52,061 nucleotides of DNA, taken from assembly GCA_964509605.1 (NCBI GenBank), contig CAZDXF010000004.1, positions 1 to 52,061 of the forward strand, written 5' to 3'. Position numbers and translations under genes: made by a program. The notes under the pieces were generated by a model. The model was not told the DNA's origin, searched no databases, and saw only the letters and a program-made list of their open reading frames with translations. Each line of letters begins with the position of its first letter. Within the stretch, counting starts at the first letter, position 1. This document shows, piece by piece, positions 40,470 to 48,332 of this stretch. The DNA comes from an uncultured Candidatus Saccharibacteria bacterium (GTDB lineage: Bacteria > Patescibacteriota > Minisyncoccia > Phycocordibacterales > Zambryskibacteraceae).

Positions 40470-40510
40470 ATCTAAAGATTAGTACGAAAATTAAAAAATA
40501 TAAACGACAT

Positions 40511-40534
40511 GGGCGGGCCTCAATTGGCCCGCCC
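40511..40534. terminator. GC-rich hairpin next to cassette 5
   Basis: gggcgggcc-tcaatt-ggcccgccc. The T run is on the + side, so orientation and function are ambiguous. Confidence 0.4.
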
Positions 40535-40550
40535 GTTTTTCCTTCTTGCC

Positions 40551-40781
40551 CTAAGCCTTGGACACGACTTGCGCCGTCTTGGTGCAGACGCAGTAATAGT
40601 TGTGTCCATCCTTACTCAAACACACGATTGGCGGCCTCCTGTTGCCAGGAAGTCTCTTCCCACTGAGCGCCGCGTCCACCGACTGCATCGTGAACTGCGG
40701 GAAGGTGTCATCAGTCTTGGGTGAAGAGGTAAACTCACCCCGAACTCCAGACTTCTTTCTCCCGCCAACCGAATGAGGCAT
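40551..40781 (-). CDS. Hypothetical basic 76-aa protein (GC-rich cassette 5)
   Basis: SD ttaggagtttaaATG. The promoter-like TTGACA-17-TATTCT lies at 40859-40831. No family recognised. Confidence 0.45.
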   Translation of the reverse strand: MPHSVGGRKKSGVRGEFTSSPKTDDTFPQFTMQSVDAALSGKRLPGNRRPPIVCLSKDGHNYYCVCTKTAQVVSKA

Positions 40782-40864
40782 TTAAACTCCTAAGGGTAGA
40801 TTGTAAAAACCACAGGGAACTTCCATAAACAGAATAGAACAATTTAAACTCTATGTCAAAGAAA

Positions 40865-42535: not shown

Positions 42536-42609
42536 TTATATCAATTATAACCTTTTTGGGTCGATGGGTGTATAGATTTAACACTAAGTTTGTTTCCATA
42601 TAAAGAAAA

Positions 42610-42637
42610 AGGCGCCGTACCCGTGGGTCGTGCGCCT
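42610..42637 (-). terminator. Hairpin terminator of cassette 6
   Basis: aggcgc...gcgcct stem with an inner accc-gt-gggt stem, followed by a T-rich run on the minus strand. Confidence 0.55.
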
Positions 42638-42655
42638 CATTTTTCTCCCAGAAAG

Positions 42656-43057
42656 TCAAGCCACCTTAGATGCCTCCTTCACTTCTTCCCTGAACCAACC
42701 CCAAGAAACACGACGCTCCTCATCCAAACACTTCTTGGCTACCTCGAGAGCAACAAGAAGTTGATTGGTGTGTTCCATGAGTCGTTGGGCAGAAATCATA
42801 TCTGCAAGCCTTGGACCCATACCAGCATAGTAGCGACGACACGGTCTCTGCCACTGAGGATTCAGCTCGCAAAAGAAGAAGTCCATTACCGACACATAAC
42901 GGTCCATGTTCTTCCTTGAGGCAACAAACTCCAACGATTCCATGTAGTCGCCACTCAAGAGGAGGGCTTCCACTTGTGGAAAGATTGAGTTGGTGGCACC
43001 ACCAACCAGTTCTAAGGCCTGTCTGACCTCCATGCACATCGACATTGATAGCGACAT
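42656..43057 (-). CDS. Hypothetical 133-aa, predicted all-helical protein (GC-rich cassette 6)
   Basis: SD tggaggcaggaATG. TTGACA-16-TATTTT lies at 43124-43097. No family recognised. Confidence 0.5.
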   Translation of the reverse strand: MSLSMSMCMEVRQALELVGGATNSIFPQVEALLLSGDYMESLEFVASRKNMDRYVSVMDFFFCELNPQWQRPCRRYYAGMGPRLADMISAQRLMEHTNQLLVALEVAKKCLDEERRVSWGWFREEVKEASKVA

Positions 43058-43191
43058 TCCTGCCTCCAGAGAAAGTTGTTCAAAATTCTATTTCTTAAAA
43101 TATAACAAAAATTGCGATTGTCAACTAACTAGTTTTAACACCTCAATATTGGGTATCCAGAAATCGCCCAACAAAGCCATGAGATAAATTG

Positions 43192-43381: not shown

Positions 43382-44050
43382 TTAGAAATGCTCACCCACT
43401 ATAGCTAAAGCCCTTCTCATTTTCAACTTTTTCCTTTTCAGATATATTCCTTTTTTATTTTCGTACATTTTTCTTAGTAAGAAAATAGACTCTTTTTTGG
43501 CATATTTAAGTTGAATGACAGATCTTTTCTTGTTATTTGTTATATGACCCTTAATTTTTAATCTTTTAAATAGCTCATTTCTAATCCAAGATATGTTTTC
43601 TTTGCTTGCGGAAACAAATTCTGTATAAAACATAAAACTAGATCTCCAACGCAAATCCCAATACGAATAGAATGTTCCGTCTCCATCAAACAGTCCCCTC
43701 AAAAAGGAAAAGAAATACTTTTTAGGTATATCAACTTCTCCAATCACTTTAGACTTTGCTGGCATTAGTCCAATTCCAAGAAGAAATTTATAAAAGACAA
43801 CATCTCCAAACTGGATTCTGTTGCTCTTTTTTGAACCTTTTCCAGAAGTGGTTGTTCCAACCTTAATCCCTCTAATTTTAAAAGCTTTTAAAAAATTTTT
43901 TATTTGGTCATCTTCTTTAGAAACAAAAACTATATGCCTGCCGTCTGGAGAAAGATTTCCATCACTAACTAAAAGACCTATGCCATATGCAAAATCATCT
44001 GACCATTTGGTCTTTACCAATCTTTTTGGTTTTCTGCCCGTATTCCCCAT
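43382..44050 (-). CDS. Free-standing LAGLIDADG homing endonuclease (two-motif, monomeric type)
   Basis: Motifs GIGLLVSDGNL and LRGLFDGDGTF, ~100 aa apart; 222 aa. The stop lies 1 nt from the tRNA-Leu 5' end. Confidence 0.85.
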   Translation of the reverse strand: MGNTGRKPKRLVKTKWSDDFAYGIGLLVSDGNLSPDGRHIVFVSKEDDQIKNFLKAFKIRGIKVGTTTSGKGSKKSNRIQFGDVVFYKFLLGIGLMPAKSKVIGEVDIPKKYFFSFLRGLFDGDGTFYSYWDLRWRSSFMFYTEFVSASKENISWIRNELFKRLKIKGHITNNKKRSVIQLKYAKKESIFLLRKMYENKKGIYLKRKKLKMRRALAIVGEHF

Positions 44051-45533: not shown

Positions 45534-45547
45534 AAGTCTTCTTTTTG

Positions 45548-45620
45548 TGCGCGATACAGGACTCGAACCTATGACCTTCCCGGTGTAAACGGGTTGCTCT
45601 ACCAACTGAGCTAATCGCGC
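45548..45620 (-). tRNA. tRNA-Val (anticodon TAC)
   Basis: Reverse complement: GCGCGATTAGCTCAGTTGGTAGAGCAACCCGTTTACACCGGGAAGGTCATAGGTTCGAGTCCTGTATCGCGCA. Confidence 0.85.
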
Positions 45621-45725
45621 ATACTAACTAAAGTTATAAACAAATATTCCTAATGTAAATGGGCCTCCATATCTACCAAGACAGCATGATCGTACGTGAC
45701 GGGCATTAAAACAAATGCTCCGGGC

Positions 45726-45821
45726 GCAGTATTCTTGAATTAGTCCGAACGCATTTCGCCGCCTGCGGCGGCGAGGAAGTTCCCCCGCGAAAATTCGGAA
45801 AGGCGGCGGAGCCGCACCGCT
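45726..45821. repeat. IR-1 left arm (96 bp, GC-rich)
   Basis: Perfect reverse complement of 46565-46660, checked base by base. Confidence 0.9.
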
Positions 45822-45866
45822 GACAATTTCAAGTTTTTCTTTGGCGGCAGAATTCTTTGAAAAATT

Positions 45867-46397
45867 TTAGAGTCCTTGATTCTTAGATTGGCGAGCGCGC
45901 TGAATTAGCTCGTCTCGAAGTTGTTCTGCAACATCCATAGAAACTGCAGGCAATCTTCCCTCTGCACTGCCACCCATTACGCCATAACGTGATACGGTTG
46001 CACTTGCTCCGGCCGTTTGGATGTTGAGGTCAGATAGTCCAAGGATGCGAGCCAAAATACCACGGTTGATGTCAACGTTTTGAATTCGGTCGTAAGGAAC
46101 AGTGACATATTTTTTATAGATAACTCCTGATTCCTTACGAAAACCCGTGTCAAGAAGTTCGTAGCGATAATAATGGTAAGTGAGTTTAGCCCACACAAAA
46201 CACAAAACAAGAAAAGCTGGGATGATAAGCCACAACCAATTCAAAAAGCCAAACGAAAACTCACTGCCGTTATTTAAGTCGTCAAAACCACCTAAAAATG
46301 CTGAACCCCAAATACTCAAAAATATTATCGGTATGAACGACCGTAAAACAAAACTAAAGAAGAAAAACCAGACGGACTTTGGATCAAGTTGTTTCAT
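45867..46397 (-). CDS. Membrane protein with a bacterial PH (bPH_2 / YdbS-YdbT-like) domain, enclosed by IR-1
   Basis: Two N-terminal TM helices, then YRYELLDTGFRKESGVIYKKYVTVPYDRIQNVDINRGILARILGLSDLNIQTAG. Confidence 0.7.
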   Translation of the reverse strand: MKQLDPKSVWFFFFSFVLRSFIPIIFLSIWGSAFLGGFDDLNNGSEFSFGFLNWLWLIIPAFLVLCFVWAKLTYHYYRYELLDTGFRKESGVIYKKYVTVPYDRIQNVDINRGILARILGLSDLNIQTAGASATVSRYGVMGGSAEGRLPAVSMDVAEQLRDELIQRARQSKNQGL

Positions 46398-46564
46398 ATT
46401 TTATGAATTTAATGATTTTAATAGAAAAGCCGACCGCCCTTTCTTGAAATTATTATACCACATATTTGTCTATATTATGATTAAAAGGATTAAAAAATTT
46501 TCTTCCCCCAAAATTAAAATATGGTTCGAGCCGATGTTTTTCTCCGGGTTCTTTTGCGGTTTTG

Positions 46565-46660
46565 AGCGGTGCGGCTCCGCCGCCTTTCCGAATTTTCGCG
46601 GGGGAACTTCCTCGCCGCCGCAGGCGGCGAAATGCGTTCGGACTAATTCAAGAATACTGC
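46565..46660. repeat. IR-1 right arm (96 bp)
   Basis: Perfect inverted copy of 45726-45821. It overlaps IR-2L by 2 nt. Confidence 0.9.
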
Positions 46661-46759
46661 ACCAGACAGGAAAATACAAGTTTGAAAGGTTCGCCTCGCT
46701 TCGCTCGGCGACTAATTTGTATTCAATTTTGGGGGTAAAAACGAATTCTCGATTTCGCA
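46659..46759. repeat. IR-2 left arm (101 bp): inverted copy of the recombinase 3' end plus the tRNA-Arg 3' tip
   Basis: 97/101 identical to the reverse complement of 48163-48263. The 4 mismatches cluster at the distal end. Confidence 0.9.
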
Positions 46760-46802
46760 TTTTTGGGGAAGAAAATTTTTTAATCCTTAATTTTCAAAAC
46801 TT

Positions 46803-48272
46803 ATGAAATATATACTATACGCTCGTAAGAGCACAGAAGAAGATGATAGGCAGGTATTGAGTATTGAAGCGCAACTCGTAGAGTTGCAAGAGTATGCCGC
46901 CAAAGAAAACCTTGAAATTGTAGCTTCCTTTCAGGAAGCCAAAACCGCAAAAGAACCCGGTCGAATGAAATTCGCAGAAATGTTGTCATTGATTGAGAGA
47001 GGAAAGGCAGACGGCATTATTTCGTGGCACCCCGATCGATTAGCTCGCAATTCTGTAGACGGAGGCAAGATAATTCATTTCGTAGATCGCGGCTTGATTA
47101 AGTCCCTCAAATTTCCCACCTTTTGGTTTGAAGCAACCCCACAAGGTTTATTCATGCTCAATATCGCTTTCGGCCAAAGTAAATATTTTGTGGATAATTT
47201 GCGAGAGAATGTGAAAAGAGGTCTGCGACAGAAAATCCGTAATGGGGTATGGCCTGGCTGGGCTCCAGTGGGATACCTCAACAATGCTAAAACTCGCGGT
47301 ATTGATGTTGATACGGAGAAATCCACGAAAGTCAGAAAATTGTTTGAAATGTACGCCACCGGAATATATACGCTTCATTCTCTCGCAAATTGGTGCAAGG
47401 AAAAGGGTTTACGAGGCAATCTAGGCAAAGAAATAGCGTTAAGCAACGTGCAAAGTATTCTACAAAATATTTTCTACATCGGGCTAATGAAATATGGTGG
47501 GGAAATTTTTGAGGGAAAACACGAGCCGTTAATTTCAAAGAAACTTTTTGATAAGTGTCAAGAAGTGATGAGTAAGCGTGGAAAATTCCATTATGTGAGA
47601 AAAAAAGATTTTGCTTTTCTTGGCCTCTTGAAATGTGCTTCGTGTGGTTGTTCAATAACCGCAGAGAAACAGAAAGGTCATAACTATTATCGTTGTACGA
47701 AAAAGAAGGGCATTTGCCAAGAAAAGCATTATCTCCGCGAAGAAGCACTAACCGAGCAAATCACTTCTTATCTCCAAAAAGTTTCTTTGTCGAGCCAAGA
47801 TACCGAGAAAGTTTTGGCGGCGTTGGATAGCGAGCAAGATAAAGCGATAAAGGACACACAATCCAAAGTTGAGATTTTGAAAGAGCAGTTATCACAAATT
47901 GAGACAAAACTCCAAAAACTTCTCGATGTCTATTTAGCAGACGCTTTATCCACAGAAGAATACGCCGCCAAAAAACAGAGTTTGCTGTCTCAAAAAGTTT
48001 CGTTATCTGAAAAAATCAACGACTTTGAGACAAAAGGGTTGTCTTGGCTCGAACCGGCTCGTGAGTTCGTAAAGTCCTTAAATCAAGCCGCAAATCTGCT
48101 TTCCTCTCCCAATCCGACTGCAATGACAACATTTCTGAAAAACATCGGCTCGAACCATATTTTGCGAAACCGCCAATTCGTTTTTGCCCCCAAAATTGAA
48201 TACAAATTAGTCGCCGAGCGAAGCGAGGCGAACCTTTCAAACTTGTATTTTCCTGTCTGGTGCTCTCGGTAG
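46803..48272 (+). CDS. Large serine recombinase (resolvase catalytic domain, recombinase domain, zinc ribbon, coiled-coil)
   Basis: YARKSTEEDDRQVLSIEAQ (catalytic Ser), SWHPDRLARN, and CASCGCSITAEKQKGHNYYRC. The last 15 nt overlap the tRNA-Arg 3' end. Confidence 0.9.
   Translation: MKYILYARKSTEEDDRQVLSIEAQLVELQEYAAKENLEIVASFQEAKTAKEPGRMKFAEMLSLIERGKADGIISWHPDRLARNSVDGGKIIHFVDRGLIKSLKFPTFWFEATPQGLFMLNIAFGQSKYFVDNLRENVKRGLRQKIRNGVWPGWAPVGYLNNAKTRGIDVDTEKSTKVRKLFEMYATGIYTLHSLANWCKEKGLRGNLGKEIALSNVQSILQNIFYIGLMKYGGEIFEGKHEPLISKKLFDKCQEVMSKRGKFHYVRKKDFAFLGLLKCASCGCSITAEKQKGHNYYRCTKKKGICQEKHYLREEALTEQITSYLQKVSLSSQDTEKVLAALDSEQDKAIKDTQSKVEILKEQLSQIETKLQKLLDVYLADALSTEEYAAKKQSLLSQKVSLSEKINDFETKGLSWLEPAREFVKSLNQAANLLSSPNPTAMTTFLKNIGSNHILRNRQFVFAPKIEYKLVAERSEANLSNLYFPVWCSR
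48163..48263. repeat. IR-2 right arm (within the recombinase 3' end, reaching into the tRNA-Arg acceptor/CCA)
   Basis: See IR-2 left arm. Confidence 0.9.
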
Positions 48273-48332
48273 GAATCGAACCTACATTGGGAGATTAGAA
48301 GTCTCCAGTTCTATCCATTGAACTACGAGAGC
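48258..48332 (-). tRNA. tRNA-Arg (anticodon TCT), CCA encoded
   Basis: Reverse complement: GCTCTCGTAGTTCAATGGATAGAACTGGAGACTTCTAATCTCCCAATGTAGGTTCGATTCCTACCGAGAGCACCA. Confidence 0.88.

Follow-up and report, generated by a model that had tools for sequence, protein, structure and literature searches.

Why is the gene for a large serine recombinase, lying next to a tRNA gene, enclosed by two abutting pairs of inverted repeats of about 100 nt? This question is raised by a locus on a 52,061-nt stretch of DNA from an uncultured member of the Patescibacteria (positions 1 to 52,061 of contig CAZDXF010000004.1, hereafter the window). A first-pass annotation made from the letters alone had described the locus as a candidate double invertible element. 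We compared it with related loci from other genomes. The results make it rather probable that 45723-48263 is one integrated mobile element of 2.54 kb, a modular tRNA-targeting serine-integrase element. The family to which it belongs appears to be very large, Patescibacteria-wide and driven by the large serine recombinase. The ~100-bp repeats would result from a second, inverted copy of the end-to-end junction inside the element.

Repeats and genes of the element

The first inverted repeat (IR-1) consists of 45723-45826 and 46560-46663 (104 nt, 97% complementary) with a perfect core of 96 nt (45726-45821 and 46565-46660), and the second (IR-2) consists of 46659-46759 and 48163-48263 (101 nt, 97/101). 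The two arms of IR-1 are designated X and X', and those of IR-2 Y' and Y. IR-1 and IR-2 abut with an overlap of a few bases at GCACCA. Y ends with TGGTGC, the reverse complement of the GCACCA at the tRNA 3' end, and Y' starts with GCACCA, so that the earlier remark on the reproduction of the tRNA 3' end in the repeat was borne out. Two smaller repeats accompany the long ones: a' (46516-46542) is the reverse complement of a (48137-48163, 27/27), and p (46485-46514) that of p' (46759-46788, 30 nt, 97%). Every repeat listed in the first-pass annotation was recovered at its position. Two more were absent from that list, namely c' (46544-46564), the reverse complement of c (46940-46960, 21/21), and d' (45823-45849), that of d (46895-46921, 26/27). 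Repeats of 100 nt with 96-99% identity are far beyond what chance can account for, and no further copies of any part of the element were found in the 52-kb window.

On the plus strand, the segments follow one another in the order host spacer, X, d', the bPH_2 gene (antisense), p, a', c', X', Y', p' and the recombinase gene, and then the antisense tRNA-Arg gene. Inside the recombinase unit, the order is ATG, d, a local helix termed hp, c, the recombinase body, a and Y. X (plus strand, as are all the repeat segments described here) forms the left end of the element, and its first ~25 nt (GCAGTATTCTTGAATTAGTCCGAAC) contain a TTCGAAC-like motif and resemble a P'-type half-site. Next to it, d' is made of inverted recombinase codons from 46895-46921 and is the conserved left border of a cargo slot, lying beside X in ~65 loci. 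The conserved right border is p, which repeats the recombinase leader p' in inverted form and, on the minus strand, is the leader of the cargo gene; p' itself lies directly upstream of the recombinase ATG (46803). Between p and X', a' and c' form a contiguous block of inverted recombinase segments (46516-46564), the sources of which sit 1176 nt apart in the recombinase gene. The p-a'-c' stretch of the window recurs with 100% identity in several loci from other lineages. Y' repeats the final 101 nt of the recombinase gene in inverted form. Y, the right end of the element, codes for the C-terminal 33 residues, and its terminal TGGTGC gives the tRNA its ACCA.

The recombinase (REC, 489 aa, 46803-48272, plus strand) contains the Pfam domains Resolvase (PF00239, E = 2.2e-22), Recombinase (PF07508, 2.1e-16) and Zn_ribbon_recom (PF13408, 3.2e-08), all above the cut-offs. 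Its N-terminus reads YARKSTEED, and Ser10 is directly visible in the sequence. REC therefore combines a resolvase catalytic domain carrying the active-site serine with a recombinase domain and a zinc ribbon, as the annotation of a large serine recombinase had stated. The open reading frame (ORF) crosses the end of the element and stops within the antisense tRNA. The conservation of the three codon positions (0.84 / 0.91 / 0.68) indicates that REC is under purifying selection, and the gene is intact. Besides REC, the space in the element suffices for only one variable cargo gene, which in the window encodes a membrane protein with a bacterial PH domain (bPH_2, 45867-46397, minus strand; PF03703, E = 3.7e-16). 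No conserved second ORF was seen in the element, directionality factors not being recognizable by homology. An exact look-up recorded no contigs encoding exactly the recombinase or the bPH_2 protein of the window.

The element lies between two host tRNA genes on the minus strand, both detected by ARAGORN and Rfam. The putative target, tRNA-Arg(TCT) (48258-48332), which would be the B' arm of attB, is intact (70.4 bits) and has a promoter-like site at 48372-48344. On the left, outside the element, lie tRNA-Val(TAC) (45547-45620) and a host spacer (45621-45722) that ends ...CTCCGGGC before the element. This spacer would represent the B arm of attL, once the 3' trailer of tRNA-Arg; it had 0 homologues in any other locus.

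Insertion at tRNA 3' ends

The relatives of REC were numerous. Among 8,000 scored candidates, more than 7,800 were homologues at E ≤ 1e-20, and the top 120 were 81-92% identical and came from Parcubacteria, Kuenenbacteria, Moranbacteria, Zambryskibacteria, Jorgensenbacteria and other Patescibacteria. A scan of species-representative genomes gave more than 565 loci, the best 80 of which included several per metagenome-assembled genome, and recombinase identity across many candidate phyla was 66-92%. The segment order of the window was found again in ~45 of these 80 recombinase loci, as judged from those with a long enough upstream part. Overall, most of ~170 loci from many Patescibacteria lineages showed the order X d' cargo p a' c' X' / Y' p' recombinase a Y / tRNA. 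Self-comparison of each locus revealed two abutting inverted repeats almost everywhere, and the double repeat persisted with recombinases only 66-70% identical and with an X unlike that of the window. The X'/Y' abutment was conserved in 73 non-redundant junctions; the loci from the DNA-pattern scan were pieces of up to 8 kb overlapping the first set, and duplicates were removed by junction sequence. The two-repeat layout is a family-wide architecture and no peculiarity of the window. Full-text literature searches found no published description of the element. A phage origin was rejected on the result in IMG/VR, where only two partial matches were obtained.

The REC homologues have ...FP.WC in common and then diverge into tails such as RRGDSNPH and PRQESNLH, which are translated antisense tRNA T-arms (DSNPH- or ESNLH-like). 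In most of the listed loci, the recombinase ended in TGGTGC, joined directly to the 3' end of a tRNA gene in antisense. The occupied genes covered at least 19 anticodon species, with the targets Leu (five), Arg (five), Gly (two), Lys, Tyr, Ile, Glu, Phe, Val and Met, to which further loci added Ala, Gln and Val-gac. The flank to the left of X was unique in each locus, usually with GT before GCAGTATT; the left junction of the window is CTCCGGGC/GCAGTATT.

The positions of a conserved motif relative to these junctions were examined on the P'/B' side. A TCCGAAC-type motif in X starts 16 nt past the common core, and the T-loop motif (A/T)TCGAAC in the tRNA gene starts 11 nt past it. In 37/40 loci, the distance of the motif from the core was exactly 5 bp greater in X than in the tRNA gene, and this offset held in three subfamilies with different cores. 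In work on the A118 integrase and its attP, the recognition motif of large serine integrases is reportedly located 5 bp farther out in attP than in attB half-sites. Because of the matching displacement, the start of X reads as a P'-type half-site and the tRNA end as a B' half-site, so that Y/X would be attP, flank/X attL and Y/tRNA attR. The X'/Y' junction at 46640-46680, which is Y/X on the minus strand and has the core GCAC at 46658-46661, likewise reads as an intact inverted attP. The first-pass annotation had held that the locus fits neither the invertase nor the integrated-element model. With a tRNA 3' end and the half-site geometry of serine integrases, it does fit the latter.

In two loci the offset was 1 (L001, L031), and there another X-type sequence, and no tRNA, follows the recombinase. 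This second recurrent sequence (L001 5700-5760, L031 7455-7530) encodes the tail WC(I/V)YCTKLEPIFK..., which was also observed in the proteins P0005, P0026, P0054, P0073 and P0116, and has a TCGAAC motif at the attP-type distance. Most likely it represents another class of cassette end (X2). A third recurrent recombinase tail was WCCNYTLCANFL.

All junction types had 4-8 bp in common. In divergent subfamilies, the core common to Y/X, Y/tRNA and flank/X covaried with the targeted acceptor end (GTGC, GTGG, GCTCCG). Since the common block always covered tRNA positions 71-74, the crossover would take place at these positions. In the relative L177, which has the same acceptor stem, the tRNA-Arg gene ends GAGAGCGC. 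Provided that the ancestral tRNA of the window ended in the same way, we infer a crossover at the dinucleotide GC (71-72). The element would then supply A73 and CCA to the tRNA, and the empty tRNA-Arg/trailer junction would have been ...GAGAGC/GCCCGGAG. A palindromic GC crossover was considered as a general basis of orientation freedom and dropped, as the cores of other subfamilies are non-palindromic at the same positions.

The empty site was assessed by gene-order comparison via the neighbouring RluA-like gene. The closest relatives were Zambryskibacteria-like, with RluA-like proteins 51-64% identical, and had the gene order Ser(TGA) ... Arg(TCT) - Val(TAC) - RluA - Leu(GAG) - His. The distance from Arg to Val was 4-880 nt, with no element pieces between, and the tRNA-Arg genes ended ...GCAC or ...GCGC and lacked element sequence. 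The empty site is confirmed at the level of gene order, in agreement with the proposal that it would consist of adjacent tRNA-Val and tRNA-Arg genes. The locus thus presents insertion at a 3' end, an intact tRNA and a site that is empty in related genomes. An exact DNA search of the left flank against a metagenome collection gave no match. The strand of tRNA-Arg(TCT) and tRNA-Val(TAC) was opposite to that of the RluA-like gene in most relatives (set L175-L192) and the same in L184, L191, L216 and the window; evidently, local inversions of tRNA genes took place among the relatives.

Modules, natural variants and the identity of the arms

Because X'Y' is an inverted copy of the two element ends, the element falls into a cassette (X...X') and a recombinase module (Y'...Y), each with terminal inverted repeats. 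The cargo slot of the cassette, from d' to p, measured 0.5-1.9 kb in different loci, with a GC content of 0.32-0.55 and genes in either orientation. Judged by inspection of the translations, the cargo unrelated to bPH_2 appeared to include methyltransferases, a HIT protein, a SET-domain protein, an SRPBCC protein, an SDR and secreted or membrane proteins, and an HNH nuclease was supported by Pfam.

The two units were also found apart. A scan for the p/a' junction gave 91 stretches, many of which were recombinase-less cassettes just downstream of a tRNA. In the typical form, the tRNA is followed by the first 11-21 nt of Y', a TGnTATAAT-like box, the last 13-27 nt of X, and then c, a, p', the gene, d and X'. 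This short box form was observed at several different tRNAs (L133, L171, L114, L173, L091, L169, L168, L099 and L128). In L155 and L093, the tRNA was separated from a full X by a short palindromic Y'Y scar, which appears to be the footprint of the loss of a recombinase module. Arrays of two or three cassettes were found in six loci (L049, L093, L114, L124, L155, L163), and L170 carried two complete elements at neighbouring tRNAs. In L066 (5799-7595), a recombinase module without a cassette lies between two convergent tRNA-Ala genes (cgc, tgc). Such a product would arise if another tRNA site of the same chromosome reacted with the internal attP, and it would represent a chromosomal rearrangement. 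L126 (395-2700) has the order X d' G1' p Y X c a p', where 'Y X c a' forms the centre from which two cargo slots diverge and a cargo gene seems to take the place of the recombinase; none of the proposed models explains this arrangement.

The orientation of the modules was counted at 46 non-redundant X'/Y' junctions with both neighbours resolved. The orientation of the window, in which the recombinase is convergent with the tRNA, was present at 40/46. The recombinase read into Y-X at five (L081, L082, L252, L069, L117), and the d end of the cassette lay beside Y' at one (L082); the same d-end arrangement was seen in L246, where one side was resolved. An independent scan for Y/X junctions gave ~24 of the window type versus 2. 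Proteins with the X-encoded tail WCSILELVRTHF... were also found, P0002 and P0045, representing clusters of 11 and 24 member sequences. Flipped states of both segments exist in other genomes, but they are rare. To this extent the idea of a double invertible element holds, since both segments occur flipped elsewhere (5/46 and 1-2/46), whereas the single dominant state argues against a frequently toggling phase-variation switch. The existence of both flipped segments and the identity of the arms suggest that inversion or an equivalent recombination does happen over evolutionary time. Flipped states can also be obtained by insertion of further modules (L082, L001, L031). As a regulatory idea, it is appealing but pure conjecture that a flipped REC would sit downstream of the tRNA promoter and gain the X-encoded tail.

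The arms were 96-100% identical within a locus versus 80-90% between loci, with mismatches of 1.9% over 46 X pairs and 2.6% over 59 Y pairs. The transitions among these mismatches were evenly divided between the G:T and A:C types, many transversions were present, and there was no bias toward G:U wobble pairs on either strand. Because the identity within loci exceeds that between loci and a G:U bias is lacking, these data point to homogenization of the arms at the DNA level (concerted evolution) and not to selection on RNA pairing, which was consequently discarded as the force that keeps the X and Y arms identical. The local folds of X and Y were no more stable than those of shuffled sequences (z between -0.7 and 0), and a consensus scan of Y/Y' gave one weak 5-bp hairpin. 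Strong local terminators or structures in X and Y were rejected on these results and kept as a minor possibility.

The short hairpin in Y/Y' (48211-48226 and 46696-46711) coincides with a hypervariable stretch of the REC C-terminus, ...VAERSEAN..., which varies in length and sequence among homologues (e.g. AEPAEAGEAN, AERRVSRREA, AERLVVSVVEPSEAN). This is as expected if selection acts on the nucleotide hairpin and not on the peptide. The hairpin could be a terminator for the convergent tRNA.

These observations can be combined in the following mechanism. The element would integrate by conservative recombination between attP and attB at tRNA 3' ends, with the crossover in the few bases common to all junctions, tRNA positions 71-74 (GCAC). 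Its right end Y, the recombinase's own 3' coding end, would restore ACCA to the tRNA, and its left end X would act as a P'-type half-site presenting the T-loop motif TTCGAAC of the tRNA 5 bp farther out. The second full end-to-end junction, X'Y', would be an attP carried internally in inverted orientation, splitting the element into a cargo and a recombinase module. DNA-level recombination or gene conversion would keep the arms identical, and the arms would allow each module to be inverted, lost or re-joined separately, while the internal attP could react with other tRNA sites. Such reactions may give rise to the flipped recombinase modules, the recombinase-less cassettes, the cassette arrays and the recombinase module between convergent tRNAs. 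REC itself may be the catalyst of the module rearrangements, and the dominant orientation may bring a regulatory benefit.

Several points weigh against this mechanism. Excision, integration and inversion at the window are predicted from sequence, and the P-type character of the Y half-site is presumed. Canonical serine integrases recombine only attP with attB, and recombination of attL with attR needs a directionality factor. No such factor is evident here, and the pairs that would invert the modules (attP with attR, attP with attL) are non-canonical. Moreover, a half-site of ~25 bp fails to account for the 100 bp conserved in each arm. Since 40/46 junctions have one orientation, the flipped states must be selected against if crossover homogenizes the arms. 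Finally, a', c', d', p and inverted repeats within the recombinase gene are left unexplained by site-specific recombination and suggest an additional layer at the level of RNA or single strands.

Conserved helices, rival explanations and known systems

The conservation at the third codon positions of REC had a mean of 0.68 with sharp peaks of 0.85-0.98, which fell on d, c and a and on the arms of inverted repeats lying wholly within the gene. These repeats define six helices, of which one is local, hp between d and c (46923-46928 / 46934-46939), and five are long-range: I12 (46976-46990 / 48122-48136), I18 (47180-47194 / 47459-47473), I14 (47196-47211 / 47376-47391), I19 (47536-47550 / 47775-47789) and I13 (47607-47624 / 47716-47733). 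In an alignment of 48 sequences, 88% of the helix cells were paired, compared with 42-50% when one strand was slid, where the paired percentage is inflated by the definition of the helices on the window's own sequence. Double changes were found at 18 pairs versus 9.6 in shuffles and in 92 cells versus 28, and 0/500 shuffles reached 92. hp alternates between GCTTCC/GGAAGC, GCCTCG/CGAGGC and GCCTCT/AGAGGC, with compensatory changes at one pair (CG:23 / UA:22) and at another (CG:24 / GC:13 / UA:9), and I19 (47537-47550 / 47775-47788) was nearly invariant in the 48 sequences. These data suggest that the recombinase ORF forms a structured mRNA or single strand.

The helices also relate the cassette to the recombinase gene. 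hp occupies the place where the cassette carries X'...X, and the contiguous a'c' of the cassette is complementary to the two segments flanking the base of I12. Relative to the recombinase module (Y' p' [5' end] d hp c [body] a Y), the frame of the cassette (X c a p' [slot] d X') is circularly permuted; the body has been lost by a deletion across I12, X'...X stands in place of hp, and Y Y' is missing. The frame thus appears to derive from a recombinase gene, the 5' part of which would have been replaced by cargo. Derivation of the present order from a two-copy ancestor via single inversions was worked through by hand and gave no parsimonious path.

The evidence above bears on several other explanations. 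The locus could be a programmed double DNA-inversion switch, in which REC flips its own gene between Y' and Y and the cassette between X and X' to give heritable ON/OFF or alternative-expression states, the flipped REC being co-directional with the tRNA promoter and extended at its C-terminus. We regard such a switch as unlikely. It would agree with near-perfect, homogenized inverted repeats that bound both segments, with inverted cores that make inversion the polarity-consistent product, with the flipped recombinases, reversed cassettes and X-encoded tails in other genomes, and with the many contigs that break at the repeats. These breaks, however, are equally explained by multiple copies per genome, and the alternative states may stem from the insertion of extra modules. 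One state prevails across independent genomes at 40/46 junctions, neither a small invertase nor an enhancer was noted, an enhancer being outside what was searched for, and flipping of cargo that lies in either orientation and often has its own promoter-like sequence makes no obvious switch. We also know of no large serine recombinase that performs inversion between identical or attP/attR-type sites. A broader idea, which can be entertained only tentatively, is that REC uses the internal inverted attP and the modules both to flip its own gene and to capture, invert and stack cassettes, as a mobile serine-recombinase counterpart of integrons and shufflons. The dominant state, convergent with the tRNA promoter, would then be OFF, and the flipped, co-directional state with the X tail ON; recombination with other tRNA sites would also occur, and the structured mRNA or single strand would provide a second layer of control.

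It is less plausible still that the repeats act mainly as single-strand structure. As RNA, the pairing of Y' with Y, X with X', p with p', a' with a, c' with c and d' with d would block the expression of REC and cargo from outside promoters; as single-stranded DNA, a strand taken up or made in replication would fold into two coaxially stacked hairpins and rebuild a duplex attP. Fold-back inhibition occurs in IS10/IS50, and the attC sites of integrons fold. The coincidence of synonymous-conservation peaks with inverted-repeat arms, the paired and covarying helices, the compensatory changes in hp and the complementarity of a'c' to the base of I12 all speak for this explanation. So do p and p', which bracket the divergent intergenic region beside both start codons, and the conserved zero-spacer abutment of X' and Y', which coaxial stacking needs. 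Against it stand the lack of a G:U bias in the long arms on either strand, the shuffled-level folds of X and Y, a perfect RNA duplex of 100 bp that exceeds any regulatory need, and the definition of the helices on the window's own sequence, which inflates their pairing. Serine recombinases cleave duplex sites on both strands, and none is known to act on folded single strands. That the locus is an assembly artefact or a dead, functionless duplication scar is hardly credible and is effectively refuted by the comparative data. Inverted repeats can yield fold-back misassemblies, and the window is known from an assembly, but the same architecture is present in well over 100 independent assemblies from different assemblers and projects. 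The possibility of a fixed scar, raised in the first-pass annotation, is contradicted by arms that co-evolve, a recombinase intact under purifying selection and an intact tRNA.

The integrated serine-integrase element, the reading that we prefer, was compared with known systems. Large serine integrases (A118/LI, Bxb1, phiC31, SprA of SPbeta) have the same domain set of Resolvase, Recombinase and zinc ribbon, and the matches of REC in the PDB were to A118 integrase and SprA, although distant (E ~1e-5 to 1e-6). They also integrate into one defined type of site and have a P-type half-site motif 5 bp farther out than the B-type. The present element differs from them in its size of only 2.5 kb, in the absence of phage or conjugation genes and of an evident directionality factor, in targeting the 3' ends of many tRNA genes instead of one locus, in an integrase ORF that crosses the att site, and in its inverted internal attP and 100-bp arm duplications. 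In the TnpX/TndX elements (Tn4451/Tn5397), a large serine recombinase is the only mobility protein of a small cargo element, as here, whereas those elements insert at GA dinucleotides instead of tRNA ends and lack 100-bp inverted repeats. Of the eight best plasmid matches listed, none exceeded 31% identity to REC.

The staphylococcal cassette chromosome (SCC; CcrA/CcrB/CcrC) resembles the element in its insertion at the 3' end of a conserved housekeeping gene, its variable cargo, and its arrays and recombinase-less cassettes at the same site. CcrB was also the best NCBIfam similarity of REC, followed by XisF. The scores, however, were far below the equivalog cut-offs (CcrB 96.6 bits versus 900, XisF 90.8 versus 375, CcrA 65.9 versus 700), and the target is a tRNA here and rlmH in SCC, so that REC does not class as an SCC recombinase or XisF. 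In addition, the element has a single recombinase, a length of 2.5 kb versus 20-60 kb, and long inverted repeats where SCC has short direct or inverted ones. With integrons the element has in common a recombinase beside a slot or array of cassettes, each with a single gene, that differ widely in function and GC content and, by analogy, cassette borders made of imperfect or perfect palindromes (X'...X) that could fold. It is no integron, as the enzyme is a serine recombinase and not the tyrosine recombinase IntI, and the cassettes keep their own leader p' and often a TGnTATAAT-like promoter. The platform is moreover itself mobile and tRNA-targeted, and most copies hold one cassette. Serine invertases (Hin, Gin, Cin, Pin) and shufflons (Rci) likewise have inverted repeats around or beside the recombinase and alternative orientations in nature. 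REC is not a small serine invertase, having 489 aa with recombinase and zinc-ribbon domains versus ~190 aa, and the repeats are 101-104 bp and not 26 or 19 bp; nor is the locus a shufflon, as Rci is a tyrosine recombinase and the repeats here are pairwise-unique and outside any pilin C-terminus. The unit is an integrated mobile element, and one orientation dominates. An IS607-family assignment fails as well, since the catalytic domain comes first in REC and the profile scored 29.1 bits versus a cut-off of 110, in the catalytic domain only.

Tycheposons are tRNA-associated cargo elements, a minority of which encode a large serine recombinase, and culture subpopulations with tandem repeat junctions have been described for them (doi 10.1101/2020.12.28.424599). 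They are the nearest published analogue of tRNA-linked cargo elements, but they are larger and cyanobacterial, mostly have tyrosine integrases, and have no reported internal inverted attP. The mechanism of the present element is closest to that of serine-integrase integrative elements, and its lifestyle is closest to that of SCC cassettes. Among the described systems that we found, none combines a large serine recombinase targeting tRNA ends across many tRNA species with an integrase ORF extending over its att site, an inverted attP kept intact inside the element, arms duplicated over ~100 bp so that two repeat-bounded modules result, and a conserved single-gene cargo slot.

Gene exchange in the ultra-small Patescibacteria, or candidate phyla radiation (CPR), is poorly understood. 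Because of its many homologues, 66-92% identity across phyla, several copies per genome and diverse cargo, the element family may be one of the main vehicles of accessory genes in these bacteria, and it may be a source of rearrangements between tRNA loci, as in L066. If the integron- or shufflon-like idea were true, the family would be a major engine of change in gene content and gene order in the reduced CPR genomes. It is unusual for a serine integrase to read, by means of a single motif, the T-loop/acceptor DNA of many tRNA genes, and for its gene to extend across its own att site. An intact inverted attP in the integrated form is unusual as well and raises the question of how directionality is achieved without a dedicated excision factor. 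Being compact and apparently multi-target, with a simple conserved target motif, such an integrase could also be of interest for genome engineering.

The surroundings of the element showed some additional features. The only Rfam RNA genes in 40-52 kb were tRNAs, and X was accordingly rejected as a known RNA gene. A free-standing ORF of 222 aa (43382-44050, minus strand) had a weak LAGLIDADG_3 match (E = 2.5e-4, just under the cut-off) and may be a homing-endonuclease remnant; it adjoins tRNA-Leu(GAG), and its other neighbour resembles a ribosomal protein L19 gene by inspection. Two GC-rich patches, 42600-43060 and 40500-40800, had a GC content of 0.49-0.57 versus ~0.36 in the genome. The former contains a 133-aa ORF without a Pfam match beside tRNA-His, and the latter overlaps a weak L20-leader-like Rfam match (E = 0.21).

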